Positions 3,333 through 63,025 of a DNA stretch of 64,000 nt are shown here, piece by piece. Within the stretch, counting starts at the first letter, position 1. Each line of letters opens with the position of its first letter. The notes beneath the pieces are model-generated. The model did not search any database. It worked only from the letters and a program-made list of their open reading frames with translations, and was not told the origin of the DNA. Origin of the DNA: a virus; IMG/VR virus record IMGVR_UViG_3300035204_001874, positions 1-64,000 of that record; one strand, written 5' to 3'. Made by a program: the position numbers and the translations under genes.

Positions 3333-3624
3333 CTTTCATTTCCTCTTTCGTTATTTTGTATAATATTCTTTTTTGTAATTGGTCATTATCGTAATGTCCT
3401 TTAAGCTTTTCAATCCTAAAAAATACATCTCCAAGCTCTTCGATAACCTCGTCGTCTAAGTCCTTGTGGGGCTTGTTTAATTGTTGCAATAAAATCGTTG
3501 CAAGCTCGCTACACTCTTCGGCTGCTTTTCTCATGTCCCACTCCCGACGAGAAAGGGTAGTAGAAAAATCACTCATGCCAAGAGCCCCCCTCTTCCTCAC
3601 ACTCATCGTCACCCTCAAGATCAT
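3316..3624 (-). CDS. MazG-like nucleotide pyrophosphohydrolase
   Basis: KAAEECSEL ... IEELGDV; true start probably MSDFSTT. Confidence 0.65.
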   Translation of the reverse strand: MILRVTMSVRKRGALGMSDFSTTLSRREWDMRKAAEECSELATILLQQLNKPHKDLDDEVIEELGDVFFRIEKLKGHYDNDQLQKRILYKITKEEMKDERRN

Positions 3625-3796
3625 TATGCCAGTTCCTGTGGTCTTCCACGTTCATCCAAACCCTAAATAGTTTATCAGCTTCATCAAATGTCATATCAAA
3701 CTCTTTCGCGAAAGCGTTTAATGACTCAGCGGGATTGCTGAAGCCAGCGAATTTAAGGTCAAGCCACTTGATCATTTTGAAGCTTAATTTTCTCAT
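3569..3796 (-). CDS. Hypothetical protein
   Basis: ORF overlapping both neighbours. Confidence 0.55.
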   Translation of the reverse strand: MRKLSFKMIKWLDLKFAGFSNPAESLNAFAKEFDMTFDEADKLFRVWMNVEDHRNWHNDLEGDDECEEEGGSWHE

Positions 3797-4284
3797 TCCG
3801 TATTATTTAAAGCTTCGTAGTGGACGTCCAAAAGCTTAATCATATCAAAATAAGATTCTTGAGAATCCTCTACCGCATCCTCAAGTTTAGCTTTTAAAAA
3901 AACGTCTTCCCCCAAATCTCCTATTTCATAATTTTGAACAAGAAAAGTCATTTCTTTGAAGTTCTTTACTTGATTAGAGTGGAGAGTTTTTAGCTCCCTG
4001 TTCATCGTCTTCGCTTGGTTTACGAGTTGGTCTCTGTCCAATTCGAAATCTTCCTCTACCTCTCTAATGGAGTCATTTAAACCACTAGCAAGGTCTGAAG
4101 GGATAATTTTTTGAGCCTTAGGATCATCCAGTACGCCTTTGGCAACCTTTGCTAAATCTTGCGCGTAAGAATCATTAATTTGAGCAAGCAGATAGTCGTA
4201 CTCTCCCTCAATCTGCCTTATTTGCCCCCTAGTAACCTCATGGTCATCAGACAGCCCAACGTACTCTTTTTCTTGTGGAGTCAT
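3793..4284 (-). CDS. Hypothetical coiled-coil protein
   Basis: 163-aa acidic helical ORF. Confidence 0.65.
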   Translation of the reverse strand: MTPQEKEYVGLSDDHEVTRGQIRQIEGEYDYLLAQINDSYAQDLAKVAKGVLDDPKAQKIIPSDLASGLNDSIREVEEDFELDRDQLVNQAKTMNRELKTLHSNQVKNFKEMTFLVQNYEIGDLGEDVFLKAKLEDAVEDSQESYFDMIKLLDVHYEALNNTE

Positions 4285-4304
4285 TTTATTACTTAATCTA
4301 GAAT

Positions 4305-5750
4305 CTAGGGCTTTTTACTGTTTAACGCAAATGTTTTCACGTTCTTGGCAGCTAATTCATCACGATCATTTTTCACGCCACACTTGGGGCAGTCCCATTT
4401 TCTTTGGGAAAGCTTCAATCCTTTGTTAATGTAGCCGCATTTGCACATTTTTGAAGTTGGGTCATACCTGTTAGCCTTAATGAGGCTTTTTCCTTCAAAG
4501 TTGGTTTTGTACTCGATACGGCTAAATAAAGCCCCCCAAGCAACATCGTTGATTTGTTTATTTAATTTACGTTTTTGAACCTGACCATTACGTTTATATT
4601 TACCGCTTTTATCTTTGATGGGGGCTTTTTTTTGCTTCATGCTCACGATATCTAAATCTTCAATAGCGATAGCGTTGTAAGGCGTTTCAACTAAAGCTCG
4701 ACTGAGTTCGTGAGTAAAATCGTTCCTCTTTTCCGCAATCTTTTCGTCAACTTTGGCACAAGCTATTTTTTGTTTTTGATAATTTTTACTTTTGAAGACT
4801 TTCCGACTGAGCCGCCTTTGACGAATCGATTTGCGTCGAGTAAGCCTTGGGTCAGTCTTGTAAGGAGATAATTTACCATTTTCAAGTTTAAGATTGAATT
4901 TTTCTAAAAATTTAGAGTTTCGTATCTCAACGGGATCAGAAAAAGTAACGTAATTTCTAATCCCAACATCAAGGCCAATCGTGTTCGACTTGTTAAACTT
5001 CTTTTTCGGGGGGATTGGTGCGCCAGTATCTACCACTATGTATACGTAGTACTTCATGGTCGCTGTTCGCGTAAATACGCAAGTTTTAAGTTTTCCCTCA
5101 GGAAGCCCGTTGGGAAGCTTAAATTTAATCCATACTTTGGAATTGGGCAGCTTAAGTTTATTTGTATCCCAATCCCACTTTATTTGGTTTGCTTCACACC
5201 CAAAATAATTATTATCTCCATACTTAGCGTAACGAGGGAACCCTTTGTTTGGTTTTTTCGCGGTGACAAACCCCTTTACCCGCCTCTTTTTCCAAGCCTC
5301 TCTATAGGCTACATCCATCCTTTTAAAAACGTCTCCGACAAGACGGCTAGGAGTTTCTTGCATCCAAGAGTAATCTTCATCATTACTCCTTCTAAGTTTA
5401 CGAAAATCCTTATCCGCTTGCGCTATATTTATGAGAGAAAAGCCGACTCCAGAGATTTCTTTTTTTGCAGCCTTATGTTCTGGGGAGCCTTTTATGATAA
5501 CGCCCGAGGCAAGATTTTTTTCTAAATCTTCTTTGAGTTTTTTTTCTATCTCTTCGCCACCTTCCGCAACCCACTTCTCTTTTCGCTCCTTTCGGGTTTC
5601 CCACATTTCCTTCTGATAGGCTACTTGAAAATTCCAACATCTACGCCTTGCTGCGAAACATTTATCAAGTTGGTGAAAGCCAGCTTTGTTAGTGTAAATT
5701 CGAGCCTTTAAGGCTTTGACAATTGTTTGGGGGTTGTCTTCTTTTTTCAT
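4305..5750 (-). CDS. tnpB: TnpB (IS200/IS605-family RNA-guided endonuclease), stand-alone
   Basis: N-terminal KALKARIY; RuvC-I IGLDVG; RuvC-II IAIEDL; Zn finger TSKMCKC...WDCPKCG; RuvC-III NDRDELAAKNV. No tnpA nearby. Confidence 0.93.
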   Translation of the reverse strand: MKKEDNPQTIVKALKARIYTNKAGFHQLDKCFAARRRCWNFQVAYQKEMWETRKERKEKWVAEGGEEIEKKLKEDLEKNLASGVIIKGSPEHKAAKKEISGVGFSLINIAQADKDFRKLRRSNDEDYSWMQETPSRLVGDVFKRMDVAYREAWKKRRVKGFVTAKKPNKGFPRYAKYGDNNYFGCEANQIKWDWDTNKLKLPNSKVWIKFKLPNGLPEGKLKTCVFTRTATMKYYVYIVVDTGAPIPPKKKFNKSNTIGLDVGIRNYVTFSDPVEIRNSKFLEKFNLKLENGKLSPYKTDPRLTRRKSIRQRRLSRKVFKSKNYQKQKIACAKVDEKIAEKRNDFTHELSRALVETPYNAIAIEDLDIVSMKQKKAPIKDKSGKYKRNGQVQKRKLNKQINDVAWGALFSRIEYKTNFEGKSLIKANRYDPTSKMCKCGYINKGLKLSQRKWDCPKCGVKNDRDELAAKNVKTFALNSKKP

Positions 5751-5958
5751 AGTCCCTTTTCGGCTTCTGATGTTCAGTTGTCGTAATCCTTTTTTAAGCG
5801 GGGGTGAGAGGGAGGATTAATCTCTCCCACCCCCTAGAGGATTTTGCTGCCCCGATAACGACCCTTTTGTGGACAAGCCACCAAGTAATCTCCATCGTAT
5901 CTGACAGCCGTGACTTTCCGTGCAACCCACGGTAGAGTTCCAGCATCAGGAGGAACTA
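5751..5958 (-). ncRNA. Putative omegaRNA-like structured RNA / 5' leader of tnpB
   Basis: Minus strand has ACCGTGGGTTGCACGGAAAGTCACGGCTGT ... CTGAACATCAGAAGCCG, resembling IS605 omegaRNA motifs. Hairpins at 5936-5957, 5918-5932 and 5800-5834. Confidence 0.6.
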
Positions 5959-5964
5959 TAAAAG

Positions 5965-5992
5965 AGTATAGCCTAACCTTGATCTATGTCAA
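5965..5992 (-). promoter_or_regulatory. Sigma-70-type promoter for the tnpB leader RNA
   Basis: TTGACA-N16-TATACT on the minus strand. Confidence 0.7.
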
Positions 5993-6503
5993 GAGTTAAT
6001 TCTGATAGACGAAGATTATAACAGTCCGCTGGCCACGGATATGGGAAACTGCTGTATGGGTCTAAATCTCCCTTTTTGCCAAAAACTGCTTTTTTCAAAA
6101 ATTCCTGTCTTGAAATTTTGCCTAAATACCACCCACCAGAATAATCTTTCTTCACCCTTACGAAAGCGTACTCGTCGCACTTTTGTCTAGCGTTAGCCGC
6201 ATAAACTGTGCAGTTCCAATCAGATTGAGGGGTATAATCTGATTCTTTTGTTTTAACTTCGACTTTCGTTTCATTATTATAAATAACGTCACAATCGTAA
6301 GTGTTTTCTCTTTTGCCCGAAAGGACAGCTTCAGCTATAAGTTCACCGATAATTCCAACAAGCCTACCTCCGCCTTCCCTATAAGAGTCTTTCAACAAGG
6401 GTATTTCCGCTGCCTCCTTCTCTGCTAGGTCTCGACCATAGTCAGTTAATCTAAACCACCTATACATTTTTGCCAAACACCTCGTTTGATTGTTGCGTAA
6501 CAC
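5973..6503 (-). CDS. PD-(D/E)XK-like nuclease-fold protein
   Basis: GIIGELIA...YDCDV...VEVKTK; start probably MYRWFR. Confidence 0.55.
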
Positions 6504-7614
6504 GTATGAACGTAGCGCACTTGGGCATGTCTTTTAGTCTCCGCGCCCCAATATAAGTACAAGCAGAACGTAACCCGCCAAGAATATCCTCTATGGTATG
6601 TTTTACGAGGCCGCGATGTTTCACTCTTATCGTCTTCCCTTCTGAGGAGCGATAGTCAGCAACTCCACCATTGTGCTTCTTCATTGCTGTCTCCGAACTC
6701 ATCCCATAGAAAACTTTATACTTTTCACCGTCAACTATTTCTTCCTGCCCGTCACACTCTGTATGGCCAGCAAGCATCCCCCCCAACATAACAAAATCAG
6801 CACCAGCACAAAAGGCTTTTGCGATGTCCCCAGGGCAGCAACAGCCACCATCAGCCATAACATGCCCACCAAGGCCGTGAGCAGCATCGGCGCATTCAAT
6901 GACCGTGCTGAGTTGTGGATATCCAACACCAGTCTGAATGCGAGTAGTACAAACACTCCCACTACCAATACCCACTTTAACAATGTCGGCTCCATTTAAA
7001 ATCAATTGTTCTGTCATCTCTCCCGTGACGACATTTCCAGCTATTATAATGAGAGCGGGATGCTCTTCTCTAACTCTTTTTATAAAATCACAAAATCTTG
7101 ACGTATATCCATTAGCCGCGTCAATACATACAAACCTAGTGTGATAAAAATTCCAAGTAATATTTTGCAGATAATCTAAATCGTCTGTTTTTTTCGGATC
7201 ATACTTGATTCCAATAGAGGGAGATATGTGTTCGTAAATTCTATTTTGCCAATTATCGGAGTGACGGTCATGCTTCCAAACACCACCCTTCCTTTGTTCT
7301 GAGCTTTTGTAGACTCCATAGCCATTTAATTTATGGAGCCATCTTTTTATATCGTTATGCTTACTGATGCAAGTGAGCATACGGCGTTGAGCAAGAGCCT
7401 TCGCCATCTCGAAAGTCCCAACTGTATCCATATTTGAGGCTACAATCGGTATGCCTTTCCAACCATACGCTTTGGGGTCAGAGCCTTCTCCACCAGCGTT
7501 GGGAAAGGTAAATTCGCGAACCAAATCGACTTCCTTGCGAGAATTCAACGTGGAACGTTTCGGGCACATGAGAACGTCCTTATAGTCTAACTTTATTTCT
7601 GGCTCTATTCGCAT
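6460..7614 (-). CDS. guaC: GMP reductase
   Basis: [60 protein letters not shown]. Confidence 0.95.
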
Positions 7615-8933
7615 TTTTTAATAGAATGTGAATGAATAGCGTCTATCCAAAACAAAAACGCTTCTTCGGATAATTTATTCTTCATGATATTTACCGTCGC
7701 ATGAGTCCACTGACAATTATCAGCACGATACACTTTAATTCTGCTAACTACTCTATCTAAAGAAGCCGTCTGTACTTGTCTTTCTGAGCCGTTTCCCTTA
7801 ACTGGGTTATCCCCCACACCGTTACCACGTTGAGGACCAAAAAAGATGGGTGTTCCCGTGTAAATGCATTTACCATCTTGTTTTAAATAAATCTGGTATG
7901 CTTCATCTGGGGTTATTTCGAATTTAATATTTCGTTTTTTTGCGCCCGATTTTAATTTCCCCCAATAAGTCCCGCTGATTATATCATGCTCATCCCACCA
8001 CCTTGTGTTAGTGTTTCCGAGATGATGACCCTTTACTTCTCGAAAAGCCTCCAAATTAGACCTTTCAACAAAATCCCTAATGGTGCTATGAACAACCCCT
8101 TCCTCTTGCGCGATTTCGTTGTAGGATTTAGTTTTTAATTGTTCTACCATCCAATCTATGGGAGGACTGTATATGGGGCTTCCATTCTTATTTAATTTAC
8201 CGTAATGACCATTGAGAAATGCTGGGGAGTCTTGGACTTGGAGTTTTTTTCTTGGAACATAGTCAATATCGTGTCTTATAATAAACCTCTTAACAGCCCG
8301 TCTACTGTATCCGTTGCCCCACTCAAGAGGACACTCTTCCGCTATTTTTGACAACGACCATCCTTCTTCAAGTTTTTCTTCCACCCATTCGACAGGGGGG
8401 TTAAATTCACGAACGCTTCGCTCTTCTTGTTTTCGGGAAGATGCAATTTCGTACATCTTTCCTTCTCGGCCCCCTGCTCTTTCTATTCCGTGGTGCGCTA
8501 AATAACGCCTAACAGTATTTTCACTTACACTGTATATCTCTGCGATAGCCGCTGGGCTGTGTCCTTCTTCGAATTTTTCCCTAATCTTTTCGACTGAAGC
8601 TAGTTTATCTAAAAGATGCCACTTGGGCTCAGGTAGAGTTATGTTGTTCTCGTATACAAATCTTAAAACTGGCGTTTTTGATTCAAACCCTTTTAGCTTG
8701 GCTATTTCCAAAGGATTAAGACCTTCTTCAAGTTTTTCTTTTACCCACCCTACGGTAGCACCAGAATCTTCAAATTTTAAAATGGGACGTTTGAGATTGT
8801 GTTTTTGCACAAACCTACAAGTAGTGGTTACTCCTATCCCTAATTCCCTAGCAATAGCGGAGGCGGTATTGCCTTCGTCCATTTTTTGTTGCACCCAATC
8901 AGGGCCGAGATCGTATAATTTAGAACGTTTCAT
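7605..8933 (-). CDS. HNH-type endonuclease with five N-terminal HTH-like repeats
   Basis: Repeats W(V/M)xEKLEEG.s..xIA; C-terminal QDGKCIYTG...SLDRV...[14 protein letters not shown]. Confidence 0.75.
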
Positions 8934-50221: not shown

Positions 50222-53200
50222 TCAAAGACTGTCTTCCTTATAGCCCTCTTCTCCTTGTTTATCTCCGGTGACTAGCCCCTGCTTAATATCCCAACAAGTG
50301 GTGCCTTCTGGAACCACGTATCCCCCCTTTGGCATTATCGTGTCACCAATGTTGCCAACAGGCTTGTCAAGTTTTAGCTTGTATCTTGGGTTTATCATTG
50401 GGTCAACAGTTAAAGAATCATAAATAGCCCAATGTTGGGTAATTAAGTAACGTTTTGTTATGTGGTCGCTGTTTTCACCAACGTCCATTGGTTGTCCAGC
50501 TTCTCCACAGATCATTAAGTAGGTATTGGTATACGTATAACCGTCGTCTTTTGGTTTGCTTTCCCAAGACATATGCCCCCCATTATAATGAAAAGCATCG
50601 CTAATTGTGGGCCATAAGTATTTATTATAATTTTCAGGAGCCTCGCTTTTAATCGCTAACATGTGGCCGCCACTCACCGTTGATCCTTCGATGGTGCTAA
50701 CGTTCCATCTTGTGAGCATTTTAGACGGAGCCGAATGTACGGGGTGTTTGTCATCGTTGGGCATCACGATATCTCCCCTTTTAAGAACGTCGGATGCGTA
50801 GTGAGGGTAGTCTATAAGGTCAAACCATGGGTCATCACTAACATCTTTCAGAACTATACCCTCAGTAAATATTGATGCCTCCTCTTGATTCTGGTAAGAC
50901 AAGTATCCCGTTAACGAGCAGTTTCCGCTTTGTACAAACTTAAATTCTGAATCGTTAGGTAGTTCACCTGGGGTCTCATAGTATGGTTGGAAATCTTTTA
51001 ATGTAACTTTTATTGTTGAAATTTCTCTCCATCCAGAAACCTTAACATACGTAGCTGGAATAGTACCCTCTTCACATTCAGTATCACCAGGTTCACAGGT
51101 TGTGGTAGTCGTTGTTGTTGACATATCACCCCCAAAAGGGTCCATTCCAACGCACCCTGTAGCAGCCCATCCTCTTGCTAACATTCTTCCGTGTCCGGTG
51201 ATTTTTTCATAATCATAACCACCATCTCCGTTGGCGATGCAACTCCATTCTCCAGTCGAAGCAGCATCAAAAAGAAATCCTTCGTTACGTATTACTTCTT
51301 TGTGAAATTCAAGTTCGAGATCGTTATCCTTTGCAAATAATTCAATTTTTTTATTTCCGATTGGGCCTGTTCCAGTAATTGAAATCGAATGAGGTATTGA
51401 GTATATAGGGCAACCGCCCAATCCCATATCTCCTCCTCCGTAACCATTTGGCGGACCAAAATCATACATTGCCATCTCCATCCCGTCAGCCATCTCAAAT
51501 CCGTCTAAATAAACTGGCCTTCTAAAATGCATATGTATTCCAGTATCAGAAAGATTAAATAAAAATACTTTATCTTCTGCGAATTGTGGATAGGGATCGA
51601 CACCGGGGTGTATACCTAATTCGCCCTCAAGATTAGTGCACGCTTCCTCTAGGTACATCTCTTTTTCCGACAGAAGATTGTCTTCGCATTGAGCCATCTG
51701 GGGGTCTAAAGGTTCAAAACCAGTTCCCTTAAAGTCATAATTCCCAGTTACTGCAATAAGACAGCCGGACCTTAATCCCATCCAATGATCTCCATAGATG
51801 TTATGCTCATTATACATTGACCCAGTAAAGGACTTTGCTTCCGTTGGGTGATATCTGTTTTTGGTCCAAATGCCAGTAGTTCCATCATCGCTGACCATGG
51901 GGTCAAAATAAATTGGGTCATATGTATCCAACATTTCGCCATCCCAAAAAATATTACAATTGTATGCGCCTTCGTTTTGAACAGATAGAGCTTCAATAAT
52001 AGAAGAATAATCTAGCCCGTATTTTTCTAAGACAAATGAGGGCTTGGCATACGTTGCCTCGATATCAAATATATAGCCCGTGAAACGATGATAACCTCCA
52101 AACGCCATCGTCGCCCTCTTTGGACCATCACCGATGTATTGAACAATGTCTGGTGTCCCTATTTTGTTTCCCGCACAAAAGCTTACTTCATTATCATAAA
52201 AAGAATGATTTCTTGTTTGCGTGCTATCCTCAATAACCGTGTTATTGCTGGAGGGGTCATTGTTATTATCGAACTCTGCCGTTTCAGATTGTGGCGAAAA
52301 GTTTTCATCTATTAAATTGCCCCAAGACATTCCAGCGTGCTCTTTTTGATGAACAGGTTGGTATTTCCCTTCTTCGTTTTTGACTCCATGAGTCATAACG
52401 ATTTCTCCACGCTCACTAATGTAGCCGCCAGAACAAATATCTTTAGAAATATACTCTTCTATTTTGACAGAAAATTTAATCTTCGTCGGGAATCCAGATA
52501 TCAAACTCGCATACTCTGGGTCTTTCAGTTCTGACTCGTAATATTTTGCGAAAGCTCCTGAGGCGTGAGGGTACATGAACTTGTAACGAGTGCTTGCGAA
52601 TGGGCCTCGCCAATACCTTGGTGGATTTTCTCCCCTTTGTTTACCGTAGAGCGGAGCCCACCCCCACTCTTCTGGCGTGATTCCATTATCATAAGAACCA
52701 TCACTACACATGCCATTAATGCATTGTGTATAATTACAAAACTCAAGCTCGTCGCCTTCTTGGCCCGCCATGCAATCAAATGGACATTGGACTTTTATCG
52801 GGTTATCGCACATGGCCATCATGGGGTCTTCGGAGGTGGTGGTTGTTGTGCTTCCACCTGCTCCTCCCCCGCCACACTCTGGGTCCATCGGATCACACGT
52901 TGTTGTCGTCGTTGGAGCGGCAGTTGTTGTCGGGGCGGCGGTTGTCGTGGTAGTCGTTCCAAAGAGTGCTCTACATCTAGATAAATTTGGAATAGAAGCT
53001 AAAGAACGGCTGGTGTGCCAACCATTTTCAATTCCACTAAATGGAAAATAAGACGGAGGATTTGGGTCTACCCACCAATAATTTAAAGTCTTACTTGAGG
53101 TTGTTGAATACCCCGTCCATTCGGACATGCATGAAACAATTTCTCCTGCGTGTTCTTCTCCGGTATATATGTAGCCAGTTATAAATTCATCCCAATAACT

Positions 53201-55696
53201 TGGGCCTGAGACCCCAAGAATAGTTTCTGAATATAAAATTTCGGCTCCGCTAACAGCCAATACGTCAGACAAAGGCGCACTTTGATTAATCGTGTAACTT
53301 GTATCCGAGTTCGTTTTATATAATCTATCTGGATCAATGTTTCCAGTGGGAACGGAATAAAAGGTCCATTTATGTCCAGCGTTTTCTCTATTCCAGCCTG
53401 AAATCTCATAATCTTGAGAGCAATCTCCCATCCCGAAGAATCTATTAGCTGTTAATTTTTGATTATGACGCCCTTCGGTTGGGTGGATTGTTTTTTCATA
53501 TGCGCTATTGTGTATATTGGGGTGTACGTTATTTCCTGTAAGTTGGCCTAAGTTATCTAGCCCTGGTTCATAAAGATAAGTTTCATCGTAGTTATTTGAA
53601 ATTGGGTCTGATTCAAATATAAGGTCCATTTCTCCATTGATGGCCTCAGAAAATCCAGGGTTAGTATATTTTCGGGACATTGGAATATTCCACCCTCCCG
53701 TTTCCATCGTGTGGTAAGGAGGAAGGGTAGGATTATTTATAAATTTCCACATCCACCCCGGAGTAATTGTGAGCGATGCACTTTGCCTATTTGTTTTGTT
53801 GTCTGATACGATTTGTGCGTGAGCAAATGGACCTCCTTCGAAATCATTAGCCCAACCACCCTTGGCGACTTCAGCGTATCTTAGATACGCGGGTTGAGGG
53901 GGGCCAACCGTACCTTTTATGACTCCCGCTGTGGGAACGGTAGCGGCGAAAGCTCTTCTTCCGACGCTCGTGAAATTTATAATTGGGTTAACTTTATGAT
54001 CTTTATATTGTCCGTAAAGCCTCGCTGGATGAAATTCTATGGGAGCTATAGCAAACCCAGTTCTTTCTATTACTGTCGTATCATCCCACCAATAAGCCGC
54101 AGAACCTATATCCTCTTTAAGGATGTGATGCCTTAAGCTCATATCTCGCTCTACCCCCACCGGAAACGCAAGTGGAGCTTGTATTTCGTATTGGTCAGCC
54201 CACTGCCAAGAATAAGGACTCCAAGTTCCCCCGCCATTCTGACATTTTGCTTCGGTTGTAAAATCGCAATGGCCATGCTCTTCACTTCCCGGACCTTCAT
54301 TGTGTGCATGGCTTGCTCCCGCAGCCCAATACCCACCAACATTTTCACAATCTTCTTTGCTTGTTATGGTAAAACCAGCGCATTGTGATGCCCACGTTAG
54401 GCAGTAATTCTTTCCTTCTACTCCGTACCCACACATTCCATACAGGTAATTTCCTTGCGAGTTGTAACAACACCCATGTCTATAAGCATCTCTCCAAGGT
54501 CTCCCGTCTGTTGTTTCGTGATCGTTCACATAGGAGTAAGCTTCAAAGTGAGAGCCATCGGTAACCGTATGCATTAAATTTGAGCCCTCATACCAAGCAG
54601 TCAGCCATGTACCGTCTGCGTGCTTATATGATTCAGCGTTATCAAAGTCCCAGTTATCGCCGTAAAGTGCTCCGATTGGGTAATTTTCTCTTAACCTTTG
54701 CTCTATGTACTCTATAGCTTTTGAGGAATACTGTCCGTACACTGGGGGAGCTTCTACGGTTACCCTACTCAACATGCTTCCGGTAACTGGAGCGATATTG
54801 TAGGATTCATCTATGCATGGATAATCTATTGGTCCGATATTTTTGTACCCAGTTATCTTATCGTCGTCATTCAACACTGGAACGGACACGTCTTCGCAAT
54901 AACGCTCATCTTTCCAGCTAAGGTCTGAATAAACAAATTCTGCTTCAAGTTTGTAGGCTTGAAGCTCGCTATCTTTCATTACTTGGGGATCAAGGTGTCC
55001 ATCGGAAAAGATGTCAGTTAAATCTTCAAAACCAAAAGACGTCATTATCGTCTCCACGGTTCCTTCTGAAGATTGTTCGACTTTAACTTCTTTTAGGACG
55101 TCTTCATAACTTAATTCAGTAAGCGCGACCATGTCTCCAAAAGTCATTTCTACTGATATCCTGTGTTTAAAAGCGAAATACCCAAGCATTCTTTGGTATA
55201 AAAAGAAAACCTCAAAACCGCTTTTCATCCCCTCCATTCCCATCGATAAACCTAATGCTACGGCACACGCAGCAATATCAGTCTTAAGTTCTGAACTGCC
55301 CGAACTTATAACCACCTTTGGTTTAGCGTATTCAACATATTGGTGAAACTTAGATTCGCTATCAAATCCTTCGGCGGCTTGTAATTTTTCTATATTGTCT
55401 TCACCCGAGTCGCTCACTACTGATTCGCCAGCCATACTTTCACTTTTTACAGTTTTGTAACCGCCCCTACCAAGAATGTCCTGAACGGTACTTCCTGCTG
55501 TGGCTCCTGCTGAATCTGACGCCATGCCTAAAATTGCCGCTAATGCTGTTTCCAGCCTTGGAGCAAAATCAGGATTTGGAATATTCTTTACAAAATAACA
55601 AATAACAAAAGAAGAAGATTTCCCCGTAACTCTTATGAAAGTTTTCTCTGGTGAAGTTCGATAAAATTCACTATTATATTTTGTCGGCTTTGACAT
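50222..55696 (-). CDS. Giant putative virion/tail-associated protein (1824 aa)
   Basis: G/S/T/Y-rich, C..C..GG.W modules, poly-Thr linkers; function inferred only. Confidence 0.6.
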   Translation of the reverse strand: MSKPTKYNSEFYRTSPEKTFIRVTGKSSSFVICYFVKNIPNPDFAPRLETALAAILGMASDSAGATAGSTVQDILGRGGYKTVKSESMAGESVVSDSGEDNIEKLQAAEGFDSESKFHQYVEYAKPKVVISSGSSELKTDIAACAVALGLSMGMEGMKSGFEVFFLYQRMLGYFAFKHRISVEMTFGDMVALTELSYEDVLKEVKVEQSSEGTVETIMTSFGFEDLTDIFSDGHLDPQVMKDSELQAYKLEAEFVYSDLSWKDERYCEDVSVPVLNDDDKITGYKNIGPIDYPCIDESYNIAPVTGSMLSRVTVEAPPVYGQYSSKAIEYIEQRLRENYPIGALYGDNWDFDNAESYKHADGTWLTAWYEGSNLMHTVTDGSHFEAYSYVNDHETTDGRPWRDAYRHGCCYNSQGNYLYGMCGYGVEGKNYCLTWASQCAGFTITSKEDCENVGGYWAAGASHAHNEGPGSEEHGHCDFTTEAKCQNGGGTWSPYSWQWADQYEIQAPLAFPVGVERDMSLRHHILKEDIGSAAYWWDDTTVIERTGFAIAPIEFHPARLYGQYKDHKVNPIINFTSVGRRAFAATVPTAGVIKGTVGPPQPAYLRYAEVAKGGWANDFEGGPFAHAQIVSDNKTNRQSASLTITPGWMWKFINNPTLPPYHTMETGGWNIPMSRKYTNPGFSEAINGEMDLIFESDPISNNYDETYLYEPGLDNLGQLTGNNVHPNIHNSAYEKTIHPTEGRHNQKLTANRFFGMGDCSQDYEISGWNRENAGHKWTFYSVPTGNIDPDRLYKTNSDTSYTINQSAPLSDVLAVSGAEILYSETILGVSGPSYWDEFITGYIYTGEEHAGEIVSCMSEWTGYSTTSSKTLNYWWVDPNPPSYFPFSGIENGWHTSRSLASIPNLSRCRALFGTTTTTTAAPTTTAAPTTTTTCDPMDPECGGGGAGGSTTTTTSEDPMMAMCDNPIKVQCPFDCMAGQEGDELEFCNYTQCINGMCSDGSYDNGITPEEWGWAPLYGKQRGENPPRYWRGPFASTRYKFMYPHASGAFAKYYESELKDPEYASLISGFPTKIKFSVKIEEYISKDICSGGYISERGEIVMTHGVKNEEGKYQPVHQKEHAGMSWGNLIDENFSPQSETAEFDNNNDPSSNNTVIEDSTQTRNHSFYDNEVSFCAGNKIGTPDIVQYIGDGPKRATMAFGGYHRFTGYIFDIEATYAKPSFVLEKYGLDYSSIIEALSVQNEGAYNCNIFWDGEMLDTYDPIYFDPMVSDDGTTGIWTKNRYHPTEAKSFTGSMYNEHNIYGDHWMGLRSGCLIAVTGNYDFKGTGFEPLDPQMAQCEDNLLSEKEMYLEEACTNLEGELGIHPGVDPYPQFAEDKVFLFNLSDTGIHMHFRRPVYLDGFEMADGMEMAMYDFGPPNGYGGGDMGLGGCPIYSIPHSISITGTGPIGNKKIELFAKDNDLELEFHKEVIRNEGFLFDAASTGEWSCIANGDGGYDYEKITGHGRMLARGWAATGCVGMDPFGGDMSTTTTTTTCEPGDTECEEGTIPATYVKVSGWREISTIKVTLKDFQPYYETPGELPNDSEFKFVQSGNCSLTGYLSYQNQEEASIFTEGIVLKDVSDDPWFDLIDYPHYASDVLKRGDIVMPNDDKHPVHSAPSKMLTRWNVSTIEGSTVSGGHMLAIKSEAPENYNKYLWPTISDAFHYNGGHMSWESKPKDDGYTYTNTYLMICGEAGQPMDVGENSDHITKRYLITQHWAIYDSLTVDPMINPRYKLKLDKPVGNIGDTIMPKGGYVVPEGTTCWDIKQGLVTGDKQGEEGYKEDSL

Positions 55697-55723: not shown

Positions 55724-58700
55724 CTACTCTAAGCCTCCTAATGGATTATTACCACCAGCAGCTTCATATGCATCTGCTATAGTACAGTTTATACCACATT
55801 CCATCATAATTCTAGACGCTTCTTGTGATCTTTTTGCTGCTTCCCGTTCACTTAACGTCTGCCAATCTGGGGTACTGTCAGGTGCGGGGGGCTTGGTGTC
55901 TTTCCAGCATTTATTTACGCAAGCTTTCATTTGCACTCGATCATGTAAGACCGCCCCCCCAAGCATATCTCTCACTACAAACCATGCTTCTTGGTTAGTG
56001 GCCTTAGGCCCATCTACAATGACCCACCTTGTAACTACGCCGCCAACAACGATGCCAATCTTCCAACCTACCCCCACGGGGAAACATATTAAAGCTGCTG
56101 CTCCTCCCGCTATTGTGGCAGCCGAGAGGGCAGCTTTCCCAGCTTCTGCCAAGCCTTCCATAACTGCATTCGCTAGTTCTTGGGTCGCGTTAAACTCTTT
56201 ACTATCTTCAAATTTTCCAGCGAGCGCGGCCCCCCAATGAGCAAAAACATCTTGTTGACCCACAACTATGCTATCCATGCCTAAATGGCAGGTCGCGGTT
56301 AGATAATTGCAATGGTCTGCCCCCCGAGAAGTGCAGGGGCTAACTTCTGTACCTAAGTATTCTGCGTATTTTTTATTTATATAAGTGTTACTTCGTTTTT
56401 CTATACTGTAATCCGCCCTAGAGTACCACGCTGGCATTTTACACTGAGTACCTATAGCTAGTCGTTTTTGATGGTCGAATTTCTTGTATTTTGTTAGGTT
56501 ATTTCCCTTTAAATCTGCAAGTATAGACTCCCTTACTAATTTATATGGAGTAGCCCATGGACCCCTCATTATTCTACGGTACCCTCCCCTAACTGGTTTT
56601 GGACCCATCCCAGGATGCGCTGTGTAGGATATAGTTTCGTCTTTGTATCTGTGATCTGCTGATATTTGAATTATATATTTATCAAATCCTATGCTCGGTT
56701 GAGCTTCTTTAACTAAAGTTCTTTTAAATTTTACATAGTTTGATAGTGCCAGCAATTTTCCTCCTGGGAAAAACCCGTAATTGTATTTCATGCTTAGGCA
56801 CGGGTCGAAACAAAGACCCGCCATTAACTGCAAATTGTCACAGCCGTAATTTTTTCCAGGATCAACCCCTAAGTTTTTTCCGTAATAATAATACGTACAT
56901 CTTGGGTCTCCGTGGGTAAGGGGGTGGCTTACTAGGGGGCTACCTGGTTCTTCTCTACGGTCATCTACGCAATGTAGTCTGATTGTGCCACATCCAGTTT
57001 TCATGCCGTGTCTGCCAAATCGTAAACCTTTAGTATTGTAACCAGCACCAAAAGCTTTTTTGCGGGTGTCCTTCATCCATTTAACTTTTGCACTAATTTT
57101 TTTGCCTTGTTGCTTTAAATAAAGACCGTAAATAGCGGGAGGATCATAAAGGTGAATTTGTCTATTGTGACCAGCGGAATAGAAAGCTTCAGATAGTCCG
57201 TTCCCGTTTCTATCCCTGTTGTGGTTCATCGTTTTCCATTCAAAAGCATAAGGACCATACATTGGCTCTCTTTTTAAGTAAGTATTGTAAGGTTTTCCCC
57301 CCCAAAAAAATTGGATAGCTGATGAGCCCCTCCTTAAACCTGGAGCAATGTAGCTGTGGTTCGCTGTTCTCTTCGTGCCTTTCCCGTTACAAGCTAACCA
57401 AACCCTTTGGTGATTCTCTACAAAATAAAGCATGAATCTTCCAGCGGAACCAGAGCGTGCGTTTATTTCGCTCCCCGGAATTGGTTCTCCATGGCCGCAC
57501 CAGCCACAATTGCTACCAGCAAGCGTAGTTCCTCCAATTAATCGTTGAGCATCCTTAAAATTTCGCTCTCTTGTCCCGCTTCTTTCCCCTCCCCAATAGT
57601 AGACATCATCTGTGTCGGCAGCTTCGTATTTAAATATCTTGCCTTGACCGAGACCTTTGGTTTCATGATATCCTGCTTTGCCAAATCTTGGTATTTTTCC
57701 TAAAAGATTTGAAAATTGCCAAGCTGTTCCCATGCCCCAATAACCAATCATAAGTTCTGGATAATCCCGATAAGAGTCTGTCTCTGGCCAAGGGTAAAAT
57801 TCTCCATGATGAAAAAGCTGCCTTGGTTTTAGACCGGGTGGATTATGATCACACAATACAGCAGGATCACGAACACTAAAATGTCTAATGGCGGACCCAT
57901 TAAACGTGAGGCTTAATCTTGGACCCTTGTTCCCAGGGTACATTTCGTAATTTTTACACTTAGGTAAATGTTGATATCCGTAAATTAAATCCCCTACTGA
58001 TTGCGATCCTTTTTGGTTCGCGTCCAACATTAGCCCGAAAGGGTATAGTAACCCGTATTCGAAATAAGATGCTTGATCTGCTCGCGTACCCCGAATGTCT
58101 GTTTGCACAGGGGGTTGATAAGTTCTAGTTGTACCTCTAAAGTTTTCCATTCCAACTGGAGCGAATGATTCGCAGTTGTTGGATAGGTTCATGTACGTTC
58201 TCCAAGTATTTTCCCAAGCAGCGTTTGGGTCTCTTGTAATGCCAGCAAACGGCATAACCTTATTTCCTGCTGCCCCTGGTATCCCTTGCCACTTCATATT
58301 TGCGCCGAGTTGTTCTCCCGCTCCAAAAAGTCCAGGCACAAAAGATACAGACGTGAAGTCTTTTTTTCCAAACCAAGGATTTACGGATATCCCAAGGCCA
58401 AGTGTCCCTTCAGCGGGGGAACCGTTTCTAACTGACACATCCATTCGTAACCAGTTTTCCGTTTCTAAATTCGCATACTCACTCCTCCTCATTCCAAACC
58501 TTCCAGAGGCAAGCGCAAAATAGTAATATTCTTCATCAGGGTCATCACTACCGTACCCTTTCGCGCCTTTTTGAAATATCATTGATGCAGTATTGCGTCC
58601 TGTTTTTACCGTGTAAGAATCCATATCGGCTCCTGGTTTTAACCCGTCGCAAGATATCGATTCGAACCAACCTCCATTTTTTGGGTTTTGGTATACGATT

Positions 58701-61700
58701 CCTTCGCAATCTAGCTTATATCCAAATGTTCCATAACCAACGGTGTACGTGGTGTTACCGTTTACCACGTTCCCCTTTGTTAAAACGTAAGAGCTAGTTT
58801 GATTATTCGCTCCGTTATGCGTTTCTTCTAGGTTTACAGAGCCACTGACCCACAAAGTGGTAACGTCAGGGTTACCTCCAGCGCAAGGGGAGGCGTTATT
58901 CGCGCAATGAGTAAAGGTTCCGTGTAAGCCGATTTCTTCTGGACGGTAATTACAATAAGCTTCTGGGGGCCACTCCGCATCACCTTGAGCAATCGTTCCC
59001 GCTGTTAACATCGCATCTTGATTAATTTTGGGCGTGTTGGGCCATTTGCAGGTGTTAGGATTCCCAGCGTTTTTTAAGAATTGAGCTTCATTACCTTGGT
59101 ATTCGTCTACATGACTTTCAGCAACACTTTCGTAAGGGTGAAACAGGGTACAATCTTTGGTTCCTCTCCCTCCCCTTCCTTCTATGCAAGCCCAATTCCC
59201 CTCTAAGGAAGCTGGTTCTGCGTACTCTAAAACAGACAACATTGCTTTGTTGCCACCTATCGCGTCATCTAATGGGGAGCTTACGTTAGTAAGAGCAGGA
59301 TCATTTGTATCTAACTTACTTTTGTGAATTCTATACCACTGCATGTCTATTGGGTAAAGACTTTGCCCATCGGGGTCTACTAATTTTAAATTGTTTACCC
59401 AAAAGTCAATTTCTGGATATCCCTTACCGACTTTATCCTCTGGTATTGTGTGGTAATCTACAACGTCGCACCGGAACGTCGGGGATTGCCCAATTTTACA
59501 TACAGCATCCAATGGTTGTTGGGTGAAAATCGGAGTAAAGCAGGAAAAATTAGGATCAAGTTTACCTACGCCACCCATTCCTTGAAGCCTCCATGGAGAC
59601 CTTTTTATTGCAGCGTCTTTAATCTTTCCTATTATGCTTGCGCTAATGTTGTAGGATTTACGTGGCAAATCCCCGCCACAATTTACATTATTGTACATGC
59701 CCCCATAGAAAAAGTGATTTGCTCCTGCTTGAAGTTGCACAATGTCTTGTATACCTGTTACTAAATCCTTAGAAGCGTAAACACCTTGGAAGTATCTTCG
59801 TTCTACTTCCGGCATATCATCGACAGTTTGTGCGCTATCAACCGTAGCTCGCCCCCAATGATTGTCATTTAAATAGCCAGTCATATGGTCTACCGCAAAA
59901 GTTATTTGGCTTAGTGGGAATAGATCAGTAGCCATACCTCTGTTGTGGTTTTCTACGTATCTGGTAAGTAGCCTTCTTTCTCTGCTTTCGATGAGCCTTC
60001 TGTAAAAATCTTCATCAGCCTTCCCTGGTACTTCTACCACATAAGAACAAAAGTTTTTCAATATATGATTCCAAGCGTTGATAGCTTTTTCGCCATTGCA
60101 AAAGACGTTATTTCTTCTGTCATCTTGCAGTTCTCGCGTGAATCTTTCATATCTTTCATTTGTGAATAAAATATCGCTTCTATCTGAGTCTATTGAGTAG
60201 GTTAACGGTCCACTTTGAAATAGCTCATCTGGGCCTCCTCCGCCTTTGAACAAAATAAGATCGCTATTCTTCCATTTTCCTAGATTCGCTTTGCAGGTTA
60301 CTTCATCTGTGTATTGAGGAAGCATTTGATTGCTTGCTAGTGACCAACAAGTTCCAACTTCTACGCTTTTTAAAAAGTGCTCTTTTGTTCCGCCAAGATG
60401 ATAATCAAAGTCGTCCTTTAATCTGCTTAACGCTCTTTTAAATCCTTCTGATCCGTCTCCAACAAGGTCTTTTTTCCATTCGTTAGATGCGACTATTAGG
60501 GGCCAATTAGCCCAGATAAAGAAGCCTATATTTCCAGCAAACCACTCGCTTGCTCTTTGTTCGCTTTTAGCTACTTTCAGAAGGGTTCTGTAGTCGTCTT
60601 CAGAGCAGGAAGAGTTTAAAACGGGAGGTTCAATATAAGCGGCAGTTGTGTTGTTGACGCTTCCTGGAGGAATTTCATTCCCGACGCCATCACAACAATT
60701 ACAGTCGGAAATATTCAAAGGCCAATCTCTTGGAATGTCGCCAGCTACTGGTATAACACCTCCAGCGAGAGGTACCCCTGGATTAGGTGATGAAATTTGA
60801 TTTGGTTGATTATCACACGAAAGCTGCCATTTACGCACATTCCATTGTCCTGCCACCCACTGCTCCTTTCTAACATTGCACCAAAACTGAGTTACCCCAG
60901 GTTGCTCGACCCCCTTTACGTAACATCTACCGCCACCAAAACCTTCGCAATTCCACTCAGCGGTAATTTCGTTACCGTGAATATCATTCGTTGGAGTACA
61001 GTAGGAGTGGCAGTCTTCTTGTGGTAGACTGCTATCTCCCCAGCAAGTAGAAGAGGCGTTGGTGCTGCCAGCGGTAGAGCCTATTTCTATATCCCACGCA
61101 TTATTTAAGGCGTCACGTTCCTCTTGGGGGTCAGAATCAGCATTTAAAACATAACATTCCTCATCAATTTTAATAATTTTATATTTGAGATATTGAGTTT
61201 TAGCTTTATTTCGAGCCTCGAATGAAGGACCACTATCAAATTGTTTTTCTACCCTTAGTATTTTCGCAGCATTTCTAGATGTCCAATTGCCCCCGTCAAC
61301 AGCGTTGTTTGGTGGGAAGTTTTTAAATTCGTCAAGTCTCCTATAGTAGTAAAAATGATACGCTAAATCATCCACACCGTCATTGGTTGAACCAGAAAGA
61401 TCAGCGGAGGTTCTTCCGCATTTATTTAAAAATCTAGCCCCGTAAAAACCGAACTTGCCTATTGCAGCATAATAAGGAACATCAAAATATTCATTTGGGC
61501 AAGCGTGTATTGGGGTTGCTGAAGACCAAGGGAGATAATCGATAGTATTTGGGCACTGCCTGTATGTCCAATAATGATTTTGGGTCGCCATCGAAGCACC
61601 CTTGCCTTCCATTCCAACAAATGAAGTTACAAGATTACTTGAGGTGTTTTCCGTTTGGTTAAAGAACTCTTCGTGATTATATCTAAATATGAAATGCCAA

Positions 61701-63025
61701 TAGACAGAATCACTATAACCGAGGAAGTTAGCTTGATCATTAAATGCTGCTCCAGGTCCAGTCGCAGCCCCCAATTGAATATTCGTGCAAGAAGAGCAAG
61801 CTGACACTGCTGTATTTGTTTCTAACGCTCTAGCGTTGCAAATTTTTCCTCTTAATTTAGTTTCGGTAATGCCCGCAATTGGATAGGTTAGCCTAGGGTA
61901 AGCGTTATTTCCTCTTTGGTTCAAAAAAGTTCCTGCGTCATCCAAAAACCAACCTTGGTATAACCCTTGTCCACCCGTATAACAAGTCTGAGTCCTATAA
62001 ACATGGGCTTGCGCGTGCCCATCCATATCTACCGCCGAAGGAAATGGGTTGTCATTATAAAAATTTCCCGCTAAACGAGCGTACACTGAGCCTGGGTGCC
62101 AACCATAAGTCGTTTCAACAAAGTAAACGGACGGTTCAAATTCTGGAGGGCATTCCTCTGAAGGTGCATGAATGGGGTGGACTTCCCCTCTCTTCGTGTC
62201 TTGCGACACCAATGGGCCAGTAGTTGGGAAAGTCGTTCTGATACCCCAATAGGCGCGTTTTTCCTCAATGGACATTTTTTTGCAACACGACCCATAACCT
62301 CCGGGTAATTCTCCAGCTAACATGGACAATTCCGCCATCTGCCCCTCAAGTCCCTCATCGCCCCCTTCTATTGTTAGTGTCGGATTCTCTCCGTAGGGAG
62401 GTTGGTAATACCCCGGCGCATAAAATGCATTATAAAAATTATAATTACCGGATATTCCTTGATTTTCTATGGGCCTTGTCCCGTGGCAAAGCTCAAAAAT
62501 AGGCAATGAATAAGTGTATTCAAAAGTTACAGCTTCTCCTCGACCCTTGGTGCTTGCTATGGCCATGTGGGGGGATTGATAAAAGCTTTGTAATTTTCCT
62601 TCTTTTTTATTGTATTGATGAAAAGCGTCAGGGCCACGATCATTATCAGCAGCAACGTAACCTTGGTATATGAGAGGGAAGGTGCCTTCGCCAGCTATCC
62701 GAGTTACCAAAGCTCCCGTCCAGTAATTATCTACACTGTCGTCGCGAGCGTAACCAAGGGGAACAGATTTGATATTTAGCTGGCTCCAATTTAGCATGTT
62801 AGGCATTGTCCCATCAGGTGGGGAGCCAAGGTTGCCTCTCGTGTCAGATTTGAAATAATTTCCTTTATACTCAATTACGTCATTTAACTGGTAAGTTTCC
62901 CTACTTGACCACTGATAGGTGCCGCCTCCTTTGGGATATATTCTAAGATAGGTGGCCGTAAGAGCCCCCAAGAATTCGGGGGGGAGCTTTGTGCGATAAT
63001 TCTGTATGAACTCTGGTACCTGCAT
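55724..63025 (-). CDS. Giant putative virion/adhesion protein (2433 aa)
   Basis: N-terminal CBM5/12-like WSSRETYQLNDVIEYKGNYF; Ig-like PIFTQQP...TFRC; Cys-rich modules; hydrophobic C-terminal helices. Confidence 0.6.
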   Translation of the reverse strand: MQVPEFIQNYRTKLPPEFLGALTATYLRIYPKGGGTYQWSSRETYQLNDVIEYKGNYFKSDTRGNLGSPPDGTMPNMLNWSQLNIKSVPLGYARDDSVDNYWTGALVTRIAGEGTFPLIYQGYVAADNDRGPDAFHQYNKKEGKLQSFYQSPHMAIASTKGRGEAVTFEYTYSLPIFELCHGTRPIENQGISGNYNFYNAFYAPGYYQPPYGENPTLTIEGGDEGLEGQMAELSMLAGELPGGYGSCCKKMSIEEKRAYWGIRTTFPTTGPLVSQDTKRGEVHPIHAPSEECPPEFEPSVYFVETTYGWHPGSVYARLAGNFYNDNPFPSAVDMDGHAQAHVYRTQTCYTGGQGLYQGWFLDDAGTFLNQRGNNAYPRLTYPIAGITETKLRGKICNARALETNTAVSACSSCTNIQLGAATGPGAAFNDQANFLGYSDSVYWHFIFRYNHEEFFNQTENTSSNLVTSFVGMEGKGASMATQNHYWTYRQCPNTIDYLPWSSATPIHACPNEYFDVPYYAAIGKFGFYGARFLNKCGRTSADLSGSTNDGVDDLAYHFYYYRRLDEFKNFPPNNAVDGGNWTSRNAAKILRVEKQFDSGPSFEARNKAKTQYLKYKIIKIDEECYVLNADSDPQEERDALNNAWDIEIGSTAGSTNASSTCWGDSSLPQEDCHSYCTPTNDIHGNEITAEWNCEGFGGGRCYVKGVEQPGVTQFWCNVRKEQWVAGQWNVRKWQLSCDNQPNQISSPNPGVPLAGGVIPVAGDIPRDWPLNISDCNCCDGVGNEIPPGSVNNTTAAYIEPPVLNSSCSEDDYRTLLKVAKSEQRASEWFAGNIGFFIWANWPLIVASNEWKKDLVGDGSEGFKRALSRLKDDFDYHLGGTKEHFLKSVEVGTCWSLASNQMLPQYTDEVTCKANLGKWKNSDLILFKGGGGPDELFQSGPLTYSIDSDRSDILFTNERYERFTRELQDDRRNNVFCNGEKAINAWNHILKNFCSYVVEVPGKADEDFYRRLIESRERRLLTRYVENHNRGMATDLFPLSQITFAVDHMTGYLNDNHWGRATVDSAQTVDDMPEVERRYFQGVYASKDLVTGIQDIVQLQAGANHFFYGGMYNNVNCGGDLPRKSYNISASIIGKIKDAAIKRSPWRLQGMGGVGKLDPNFSCFTPIFTQQPLDAVCKIGQSPTFRCDVVDYHTIPEDKVGKGYPEIDFWVNNLKLVDPDGQSLYPIDMQWYRIHKSKLDTNDPALTNVSSPLDDAIGGNKAMLSVLEYAEPASLEGNWACIEGRGGRGTKDCTLFHPYESVAESHVDEYQGNEAQFLKNAGNPNTCKWPNTPKINQDAMLTAGTIAQGDAEWPPEAYCNYRPEEIGLHGTFTHCANNASPCAGGNPDVTTLWVSGSVNLEETHNGANNQTSSYVLTKGNVVNGNTTYTVGYGTFGYKLDCEGIVYQNPKNGGWFESISCDGLKPGADMDSYTVKTGRNTASMIFQKGAKGYGSDDPDEEYYYFALASGRFGMRRSEYANLETENWLRMDVSVRNGSPAEGTLGLGISVNPWFGKKDFTSVSFVPGLFGAGEQLGANMKWQGIPGAAGNKVMPFAGITRDPNAAWENTWRTYMNLSNNCESFAPVGMENFRGTTRTYQPPVQTDIRGTRADQASYFEYGLLYPFGLMLDANQKGSQSVGDLIYGYQHLPKCKNYEMYPGNKGPRLSLTFNGSAIRHFSVRDPAVLCDHNPPGLKPRQLFHHGEFYPWPETDSYRDYPELMIGYWGMGTAWQFSNLLGKIPRFGKAGYHETKGLGQGKIFKYEAADTDDVYYWGGERSGTRERNFKDAQRLIGGTTLAGSNCGWCGHGEPIPGSEINARSGSAGRFMLYFVENHQRVWLACNGKGTKRTANHSYIAPGLRRGSSAIQFFWGGKPYNTYLKREPMYGPYAFEWKTMNHNRDRNGNGLSEAFYSAGHNRQIHLYDPPAIYGLYLKQQGKKISAKVKWMKDTRKKAFGAGYNTKGLRFGRHGMKTGCGTIRLHCVDDRREEPGSPLVSHPLTHGDPRCTYYYYGKNLGVDPGKNYGCDNLQLMAGLCFDPCLSMKYNYGFFPGGKLLALSNYVKFKRTLVKEAQPSIGFDKYIIQISADHRYKDETISYTAHPGMGPKPVRGGYRRIMRGPWATPYKLVRESILADLKGNNLTKYKKFDHQKRLAIGTQCKMPAWYSRADYSIEKRSNTYINKKYAEYLGTEVSPCTSRGADHCNYLTATCHLGMDSIVVGQQDVFAHWGAALAGKFEDSKEFNATQELANAVMEGLAEAGKAALSAATIAGGAAALICFPVGVGWKIGIVVGGVVTRWVIVDGPKATNQEAWFVVRDMLGGAVLHDRVQMKACVNKCWKDTKPPAPDSTPDWQTLSEREAAKRSQEASRIMMECGINCTIADAYEAAGGNNPLGGLE

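Follow-up and report, generated by a model that had tools for sequence, protein, structure and literature searches.

The window analysed here comprises the first 64,000 nucleotides (nt) of the viral record IMGVR_UViG_3300035204_001874 (IMG/VR), and its ribonucleotide reductase, DnaB-like helicase and DNA polymerase genes indicate a phage origin. On its minus strand, between positions 5992 and 4305, a promoter, an omegaRNA-like scaffold and a tnpB gene constitute a compact natural cassette of about 1.7 kb. The gene order on this strand is a GMP reductase gene (6460-7614; Pfam IMPDH, 1.7e-74), a gene for a 176-amino-acid (aa) protein (5973-6503, an open reading frame (ORF) with its end at 5973), a non-coding stretch of 222 nt, tnpB (4305-5750, 481 aa) and a gene for a 163-aa protein with no assigned function (3793-4284). 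The last of these starts 20 nt past the tnpB stop, has no match among the Pfam and PHROG families and lies outside the conserved unit. The scaffold occupies positions 5957 to 5800 of the non-coding stretch. Window coordinates below refer to the minus strand, and the related loci used for comparison were drawn from viral and metagenome collections.

The TnpB ORF contains the Pfam domains HTH_OrfB_IS605, OrfB_IS605 (5.2e-16) and Cas12f1-like_TNB (2e-16). The RuvC residues D261 (GLD motif), E364 (IED) and D462/D464 (DRD) are unchanged in all 12 aligned family members, as are the zinc-finger cysteines C436, C438, C454 and C457; the intact RuvC triad and zinc finger given in an earlier, preliminary description of this locus are thereby confirmed by the ORF, the Pfam domains and their invariance. 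A profile of the family matches the ISDra2 TnpB chains with an E-value of about 1e-29, the catalytic motifs line up, and the phage protein is about 80 aa longer, with helical extra sequence in the N-terminal part. The closest fold matches of the predicted structure are 8h1j (E 4.3e-13), 8iaz and 8exa; the model is weak (mean predicted local distance difference test score, pLDDT, 67.6, and below 50 around D261 and E364) and served only for confirmation of the family. A protein search yielded 17 close TnpB relatives at 48-83% identity, the next ones being at most 34% identical. Among 50,697 phage records the DNA of the locus had no match, and the protein matched 379 records, all less than 60% identical, with no close relative. 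The ratio of nonsynonymous to synonymous substitution rates (dN/dS) is 0.06 for the tnpB pair from loci L006 and L013. TnpB is under selection and is predicted to be nuclease-competent, because its catalytic and zinc-binding residues are invariant and dN/dS is this low. One locus (L020:3001-4355) shares an identical leader with L016 but, unlike L016 with its intact gene, has a tnpB frame that breaks after about 324 codons, owing either to a frameshift or to misassembly.

The leader RNA was found in all ten related loci that include DNA upstream of tnpB. The layout is the same in all of them: TTGACA or TTGACT, 16 nt, TATACT or TATGCT, about 7 nt, and a conserved structured RNA of about 158-173 nt that ends in a GC-rich hairpin. 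Between family members the RNA retains 78-93% identity; the third codon positions of tnpB are 37-53% identical, and the synonymous divergence (dS) is saturated. A covariance model of the leader RNA (R1) scores 164 bits on the window leader and 164-208 bits on nine other full-length copies.

The RNA contains five helical elements: P1, P2 and a long-range P3 around an irregular arm that ends in P4, then P5. P1 (5957-5952 with 5941-5936) and P2 (5932-5928 with 5922-5918) are followed by the junction AAAGUCACG (5917-5909). P3 consists of P3a (5908-5903 with 5851-5846), the bulge AGAUA (5902-5898), P3b (5897-5894 with 5856-5853), P3c (5890-5887 with 5863-5860) and P3d (5885-5883 with 5866-5864), and the arm is closed by P4 (5881-5878 with 5872-5869). 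The linker AAAAUCCUCUA (5845-5835) leads to the last hairpin, P5 (5834-5824 with 5810-5800), and alignments define a tail past it, GCUUAAAAAAGGAUU (5785-5799). The AGGAUU of the tail is able to pair with the AAUCCU of the linker. Runs of 5-9 U are present in the tail of six of nine loci, with only two U in the window; a UUUU at the tail position also occurs in the bacterial homologues described below, where it lies inside the scaffold.

This structure is supported by covariation. In an alignment of 16 phage and bacterial sequences (A5), which was fitted to the model and so favours its structure, 96.8% of cells pair and 24 of the 42 pairs show a compensatory change, a count reached by none of 500 shuffles. 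Slid controls, with the partners moved by 1-3 columns, gave only 0-6 compensatory pairs. Conserved U-G pairs are compatible only with the tnpB-sense strand. The hairpins 5957-5936, 5932-5918 and 5834-5800, originally read by eye, thus exist and are maintained by compensatory changes, and the proposed check for covariation in related loci came out positive. For the P3 region an RNAalifold pairing of GAUA/UAUC and CGAU/GUCG was dropped; CGAU/AUCG and GAUU/GGUC are preferred because the U-A pair is replaced by C-G in L014 and by A-U in the bacterial copies. The defining omegaRNA pseudoknot, searched for by eye between the tail and the P2 loop or junction, was not located, as the candidate partners never vary.

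The predicted sigma-70-type promoter (5992-5965) consists of TTGACA (5992-5987), a 16-nt spacer and TATACT (5970-5965). Its presence ahead of the leader agrees with the earlier reading; the hexamers match 11 of the 12 sigma-70 consensus positions. It is the best of six promoter-like sites between 3500 and 7000, a total equal to the shuffle expectation of 5.9. Both hexamers are kept, with a variable spacer, in the nine loci showing that stretch. The predicted transcription start, at about 5958, coincides with the first base of the scaffold, and the leader would measure 208 nt from there to tnpB. A 232-nt contig from a metatranscriptome library spans 5752-5981 at 100% identity, a weak hint of transcription at most, as such libraries may contain DNA. 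The same contig is present in runs X20 and X19, both labelled as RNA, X19 being marked 'probably DNA', and the two are possibly one data set. No contig of these runs covers the tnpB ORF, which is uninformative at a contig depth of 3.4. A contig of a DNA run (X4, record 15) includes a diverged version of the leader (window 5895-5941) whose promoter-proximal sequence is different, so marine metagenomes contain additional members of the family.

In the preliminary description, part of the leader was said to resemble motifs normally located just after the AAxNI end of IS605 tnpB. Bacterial tnpB genes do have this motif, ACCGUGGG..CACGGAAAGUCACG.CUGU, immediately behind their AARNI-type C-terminus. 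An exact pattern of the invariant core matched only the two known viral contigs, compared with 12 places in bacterial genomes, a number within the estimated chance range, and most of the 12 look like chance matches. Three of the bacterial matches (L029, L035 and L038, in Bacillota assemblies) are also matched by the whole of R1 at 25-32 bits and share ten further bases beside the pattern. In L029/L040 and L038/L041 the RNA match immediately follows the 3' end of a tnpB encoded on the same strand. One further match, L036/L042 (20.3 bits), has no tnpB nearby and was taken as a chance occurrence of the pattern; the remaining eight of the 12 matches in genome_contigs score at most 14 bits with R1 or are not matched by it.

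Searches that used R1 alone gave the same placement. Genome G002 has five copies, three of which adjoin the 3' end of tnpB; of the other two, L044 stands without a neighbouring tnpB and L046 is truncated at the start of its contig. In an unbiased R1 scan of 151 genomes of the same phylum five more genomes were matched, and the match follows a full-length tnpB in four of them and a C-terminal tnpB remnant in one. The elements of G002 (L136-L139) have a serine-recombinase gene upstream of tnpB, and are therefore of the IS607 type. The bacterial copies resemble one another until 13 nt past the last hairpin and have nothing in common further on, which is the signature of a right end, or scaffold, followed by a guide. 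The copies from the 151-genome scan share CUACCGUGGG..CCACGGAAAGUUACGCCUGU, the motif of the preliminary description, with the phage RNA. The core common to phage and bacteria includes the junction GAAAGUYACG, the helix NNUGUC/GGCANN, the bulge AGAUA, the helix CGAU/AUCG (CGAA/UUCG in bacteria), the arm, UCGGGGCAG, the last hairpin and a U-rich tail.

Rfam (release 15) has no family for this RNA, HEARO and the IS605-orfB and RAGATH motifs being included as far as that release contains them. In the stretch 3500-7000 there were seven matches at E-values up to 10, none at the gathering score (the best had 23.1 bits against a threshold of 37), and in eight bacterial homologue loci only a tRNA and an unrelated small RNA were matched. 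R1 had no match, at E-values up to 10, at nine distant viral TnpB loci (L001-L004 and L007-L011), whose RNAs are either different or too diverged for the model. Because the homologues of R1 sit at or after the 3' ends of bacterial tnpB genes and diverge where the guide starts, the phage leader is, by homology, a relocated omegaRNA scaffold. The proposal of a stand-alone phage TnpB with a rearranged architecture and its scaffold upstream is supported by the same homologues.

The usual placement of an omegaRNA, overlapping or following the 3' end of the ORF, is not found at the phage locus, in accordance with the initial impression that a 3' omegaRNA does not fit. The next gene starts 20 nt past the tnpB stop in the window and in L023; the nine other loci that show the stop have an 8-nt overlap there instead. 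Synonymous-site identity stays level along the ORF, at 0.40-0.46 in the final windows against 0.47 overall, and there is no conserved RNA at its 3' end. With filters off, R1 found no second match in the 64-kb window, the tnpB 3' end included, and a 158-kb relative that is 91% complete (G155) has one copy of the RNA only. The 163-aa gene is common only to the window and L023; other loci have a different gene at that place. In nine loci (L005, L006, L013, L015, L016, L017, L019, L022 and L024) this is a gene for an 83-aa protein with a CxCCG...C..H motif and no Pfam family (L006:4475-4726). It is probably translationally coupled to tnpB because its start precedes the tnpB stop by 8 nt; in the window and L023 the 163-aa gene stands in its place.

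Transposon features are likewise absent. No Y1 or serine-recombinase transposase was found among 15 ORFs scanned between 184 and 13187, in line with the reported lack of tnpA, and the 64-kb window contains a single copy of the element. The unit, which extends from the promoter to the stop of tnpB, occurs next to at least four different genes on its left and two on its right. GMP reductase is its immediate upstream neighbour in L005; in the window and L018 it stands a few genes further away. Among 21 sister loci whose GMP reductase is 73-89% identical, only the contig of L005 has the unit; an empty site could not be defined among these loci, whose flanks are mosaic, and a search via the 163-aa neighbour found no phage with an empty site. 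Given the several neighbour contexts, its presence in one of 21 sister loci and the mosaic flanks, the behaviour of the unit is that of an accessory cassette within a variable region, not that of a multi-copy insertion sequence.

Other ORFs of the window were observed in passing, all on the minus strand. A phage ORF at 184-678 has a SET-domain match (3.2e-08). A 442-aa protein encoded at 7605-8933, adjoining GMP reductase, has several helix-turn-helix repeats (HTH_23 and others) and a C-terminus that resembles, as judged by eye, a homing-endonuclease tail. Two ORFs are very large, at 50222-55696 (1824 aa) and 55724-63025 (2433 aa).

The homology to the bacterial RNAs places the end of the phage scaffold about 8-13 nt past P5. 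The distance from P5 to the AUG of tnpB is 21-23 nt in seven of the ten related loci, and a 16-nt guide slot would therefore span the Shine-Dalgarno (SD) sequence to the start codon of tnpB in those seven; a tnpB start in guide position is consistent with the homology-based boundary. In the window the distance is 49 nt and in L006 48 nt. The window has a specific 34-nt spacer beginning with ACGACAACUGAACAUCAG (5784-5751), which stands in the guide position, ends with an SD-like AAGGGA before the AUG and is missing from seven of the ten loci. Three pairings proposed earlier depend on this spacer and did not hold. That of CGGCU (5910-5906) with AGCCG uses the window-only segment, and CGGCU lies mostly in the covarying helix with 5851-5846; AGUC/GACU, closing at the AUG, is window-specific, its partner falling in 5751-5772; and the putative pseudoknot CUGAUG/CAUCAG is likewise confined to the window and not conserved. 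In L013 a lysine-rich ORF of about 45 aa (L013:1037-1175) uses the ancestral SD and AUG past the scaffold and overlaps the tnpB start; the AAGGAUU motif is duplicated in this locus. In L018 the RNA is followed by nine U, a second promoter (TTGACT, 16 nt, TATACT) and a 469-aa ORF (L018:1536-3004) that has no Pfam or PHROG family and whose stop overlaps the start of tnpB; tnpB lies 1501 nt downstream of the RNA. From this arrangement we argue that the RNA may work in trans too.

We lean towards the view that the cassette is a compact unit in which the RNA is the cognate partner of TnpB and regulates tnpB in cis. The scaffold would derive from the right-end guide RNA of IS605/IS607-family elements, would have moved 5' of a nuclease-competent tnpB, and would have gained its own sigma-70-type promoter with a start at the first scaffold base. 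The RNA most likely is still the partner of TnpB. In most members the guide slot past the scaffold would be filled by the approximately 16 nt from SD to AUG, and in the window by the 34-nt spacer just ahead of the gene. TnpB bound to the scaffold on its own mRNA would bury or trim that segment, and this would shut off its own translation; with the guide slot on the initiation region of the gene itself, binding in cis should therefore limit translation. Transcripts that stop at the last hairpin and U tract would yield a free scaffold RNA.

Several observations weigh against this scheme. The guide slot of the window and of L006 is the spacer and not the SD-to-AUG segment. In L018 the RNA cannot act via the tnpB ribosome site, yet it is equally conserved (202 bits). 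P5, as read by eye, is an 11-base-pair GC stem followed by a U run, and a terminator scan made no call in the window, L018 or L015. The predicted start lies 23 nt inside the RNA-library contig, which begins at 5981, and read-through or DNA is therefore possible. The alignment that yielded the covariation counts was itself fitted to the model. Finally, the only guide visible in this scheme matches the gene of the nuclease itself, which leaves the nuclease with no evident target.

Targets were sought with guide-slot 20-mers. That of the window (5787-5768, the tail end and the spacer start) has no second match in the window at up to three mismatches and none in viral_contigs, and the guide-slot 20-mers in the window and G155 gave self-matches only. 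The common, L015-type 20-mer has one match in viral contigs, exact and at a gene junction (L056:7178-7197); L056 is an unrelated AT-rich phage contig with no scaffold, and the match, which may be a target, is not separable from chance. These results bear on a different explanation, that the cassette is an RNA-guided weapon or a homing nuclease whose transcripts are trimmed to the scaffold and a fixed guide of about 16 nt, which would direct cutting at a site next to a target-adjacent motif (TAM) in a competing phage or the host. The intact nuclease residues and purifying selection are in keeping with it, and so are the four or more left and two right gene contexts, the occurrence of the unit in one of 21 close sister loci, as expected for a mobile or selected accessory unit, and the variation of the guide-slot sequence between loci. 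However, the guide slot lies inside the cassette and cannot match an empty site as classical TnpB homing needs, and the 20-mers have either no match or the single chance-like one. We regard this explanation as unlikely.

Of similarly low probability, in our judgement, is a purely cis-regulatory role, in which the RNA is an attenuator that masks the ribosome site by the AAUCCU/AGGAUU pairing around P5 and makes no use of a guide. An AGGAUU or AGGGUU able to pair with the invariant AAUCCU follows P5 in eight of nine loci, U tracts follow it in six of nine, and the window leader folds with a z-score of -3.86. But conservation extends well past the needs of a terminator or an SD mask: the junctions and the P3 core do not vary and also occur in the bacterial omegaRNAs, which by position are TnpB partners. 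The RNA is, moreover, found only beside this TnpB clade, and L018 retains it with no SD and 1.5 kb away from tnpB.

L018 also speaks for a scaffold that acts like a trans-activating CRISPR RNA (tracrRNA), ends at P5 and the U tract with no guide, and takes separate short RNAs as guides in trans, a possibility raised in the preliminary description. There the RNA is a separate unit with nine U and another promoter after it, and TnpB-to-Cas12 intermediates with separate RNAs exist in the structure bank (LaTranC). The 64-kb window contains no CRISPR-type array (only five short tandem repeats, none array-like), no repeat of more than 13 nt shared with the leader, and no second or partial scaffold copy; G155, 158 kb long and 91% complete, has the one copy only. 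We consider guides in trans improbable. An ordinary insertion sequence, with the leader as a functionless left end or leftover right end of a lost copy, is close to refuted: the RNA class is transposon-derived, but there is no TnpA and no upstream tnpB remnant (the 176-aa protein, GMP reductase or other genes lie there instead), each genome examined (the window and G155) has a single copy, the unit's own promoter is conserved, the RNA is far more conserved than neutral sites at saturated divergence, and the next gene abuts the tnpB stop.

With the preferred reading, a cognate scaffold upstream of tnpB, the cassette can be set beside known systems. According to a large survey (PMC10691335), the guide RNA is downstream of the gene at TnpB and Cas12 loci, in contrast to IscB and Cas9, and an omegaRNA lies upstream only in the case of IscB. 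The phage TnpB has the protein family and catalytic residues of the TnpB-omegaRNA systems of IS200/IS605 and IS607 (ISDra2, 8h1j and 8exa; ISFba1, 8iaz), which are also the best fold matches of its weak structure model, and its RNA has homologues in the right-end RNAs of the bacterial relatives. The ISDra2 omegaRNA has stems 1-4 and a pseudoknot (PMC10097598). The general layout of the phage RNA appears similar to it, with a 5' hairpin, a long-range helix around a flexible arm and a final hairpin ahead of the guide, although the mapping of individual elements is tentative. In contrast to ISDra2-type systems, the phage RNA is 5' of the gene with its own promoter and not at the 3' end, the locus has a single copy and neither transposase nor transposon ends, and the guide slot would be the leader or start of the gene itself where theirs is flanking DNA.

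IscB and IsrB share the order of RNA first and nuclease second (PMC10691335). Their protein and RNA are unrelated to those of the phage, and the IscB guide is at the 5' end of the RNA, from the left flank; in the RNA class of the phage the guide is 3'-terminal. TldR proteins are TnpB-like nuclease-dead repressors of phages and bacteria (10.1101/2023.11.30.569447), and the phage TnpB resembles them as a domesticated, immobile, phage-kept TnpB derivative with what would be a fixed guide RNA. The loss of RuvC catalytic residues that marks TldR is not seen here, where the triad is invariant. At flagellin-TnpB loci related to TldR the likely guide RNAs are in a long 3' untranslated region downstream of tnpB (PMC10691335, section 11), in contrast to the upstream position in the phage.

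An effector limited by an RNA of its own locus could be a feature that the phage cassette shares with the autoregulation of Cas9. Cas9 autoregulation uses a long tracrRNA as a natural single guide and works by DNA binding at the promoter. For the phage TnpB, by contrast, binding to the scaffold on the mRNA is what we propose.

Literature searches on an upstream TnpB RNA and on phage TnpB gave no description of the present arrangement, although the supplementary tables of PMC10691335 may list the clade. A conserved, apparently nuclease-competent TnpB clade with an upstream scaffold breaks the downstream-RNA rule stated in PMC10691335. The cassette physically couples expression of the RNA and the protein, and the control of TnpB dosage and the use of an immobile TnpB to a phage become directly addressable with it. 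The 5' end of the scaffold would be set by the promoter and not by processing, which may help engineering. We also put forward, as a speculation that we consider doubtful, that in this marine-phage lineage the guide RNA has become a separate promoter-driven gene, that its guide slot reads the translation start of tnpB in a self-programmed feedback loop, and that L018-like variants produce a free, guide-less scaffold. If this is true, the free scaffold of L018-like loci would be a step towards a tracrRNA-type division of labour, and would point to an evolutionary path out of OMEGA systems that has no downstream array as an intermediate.

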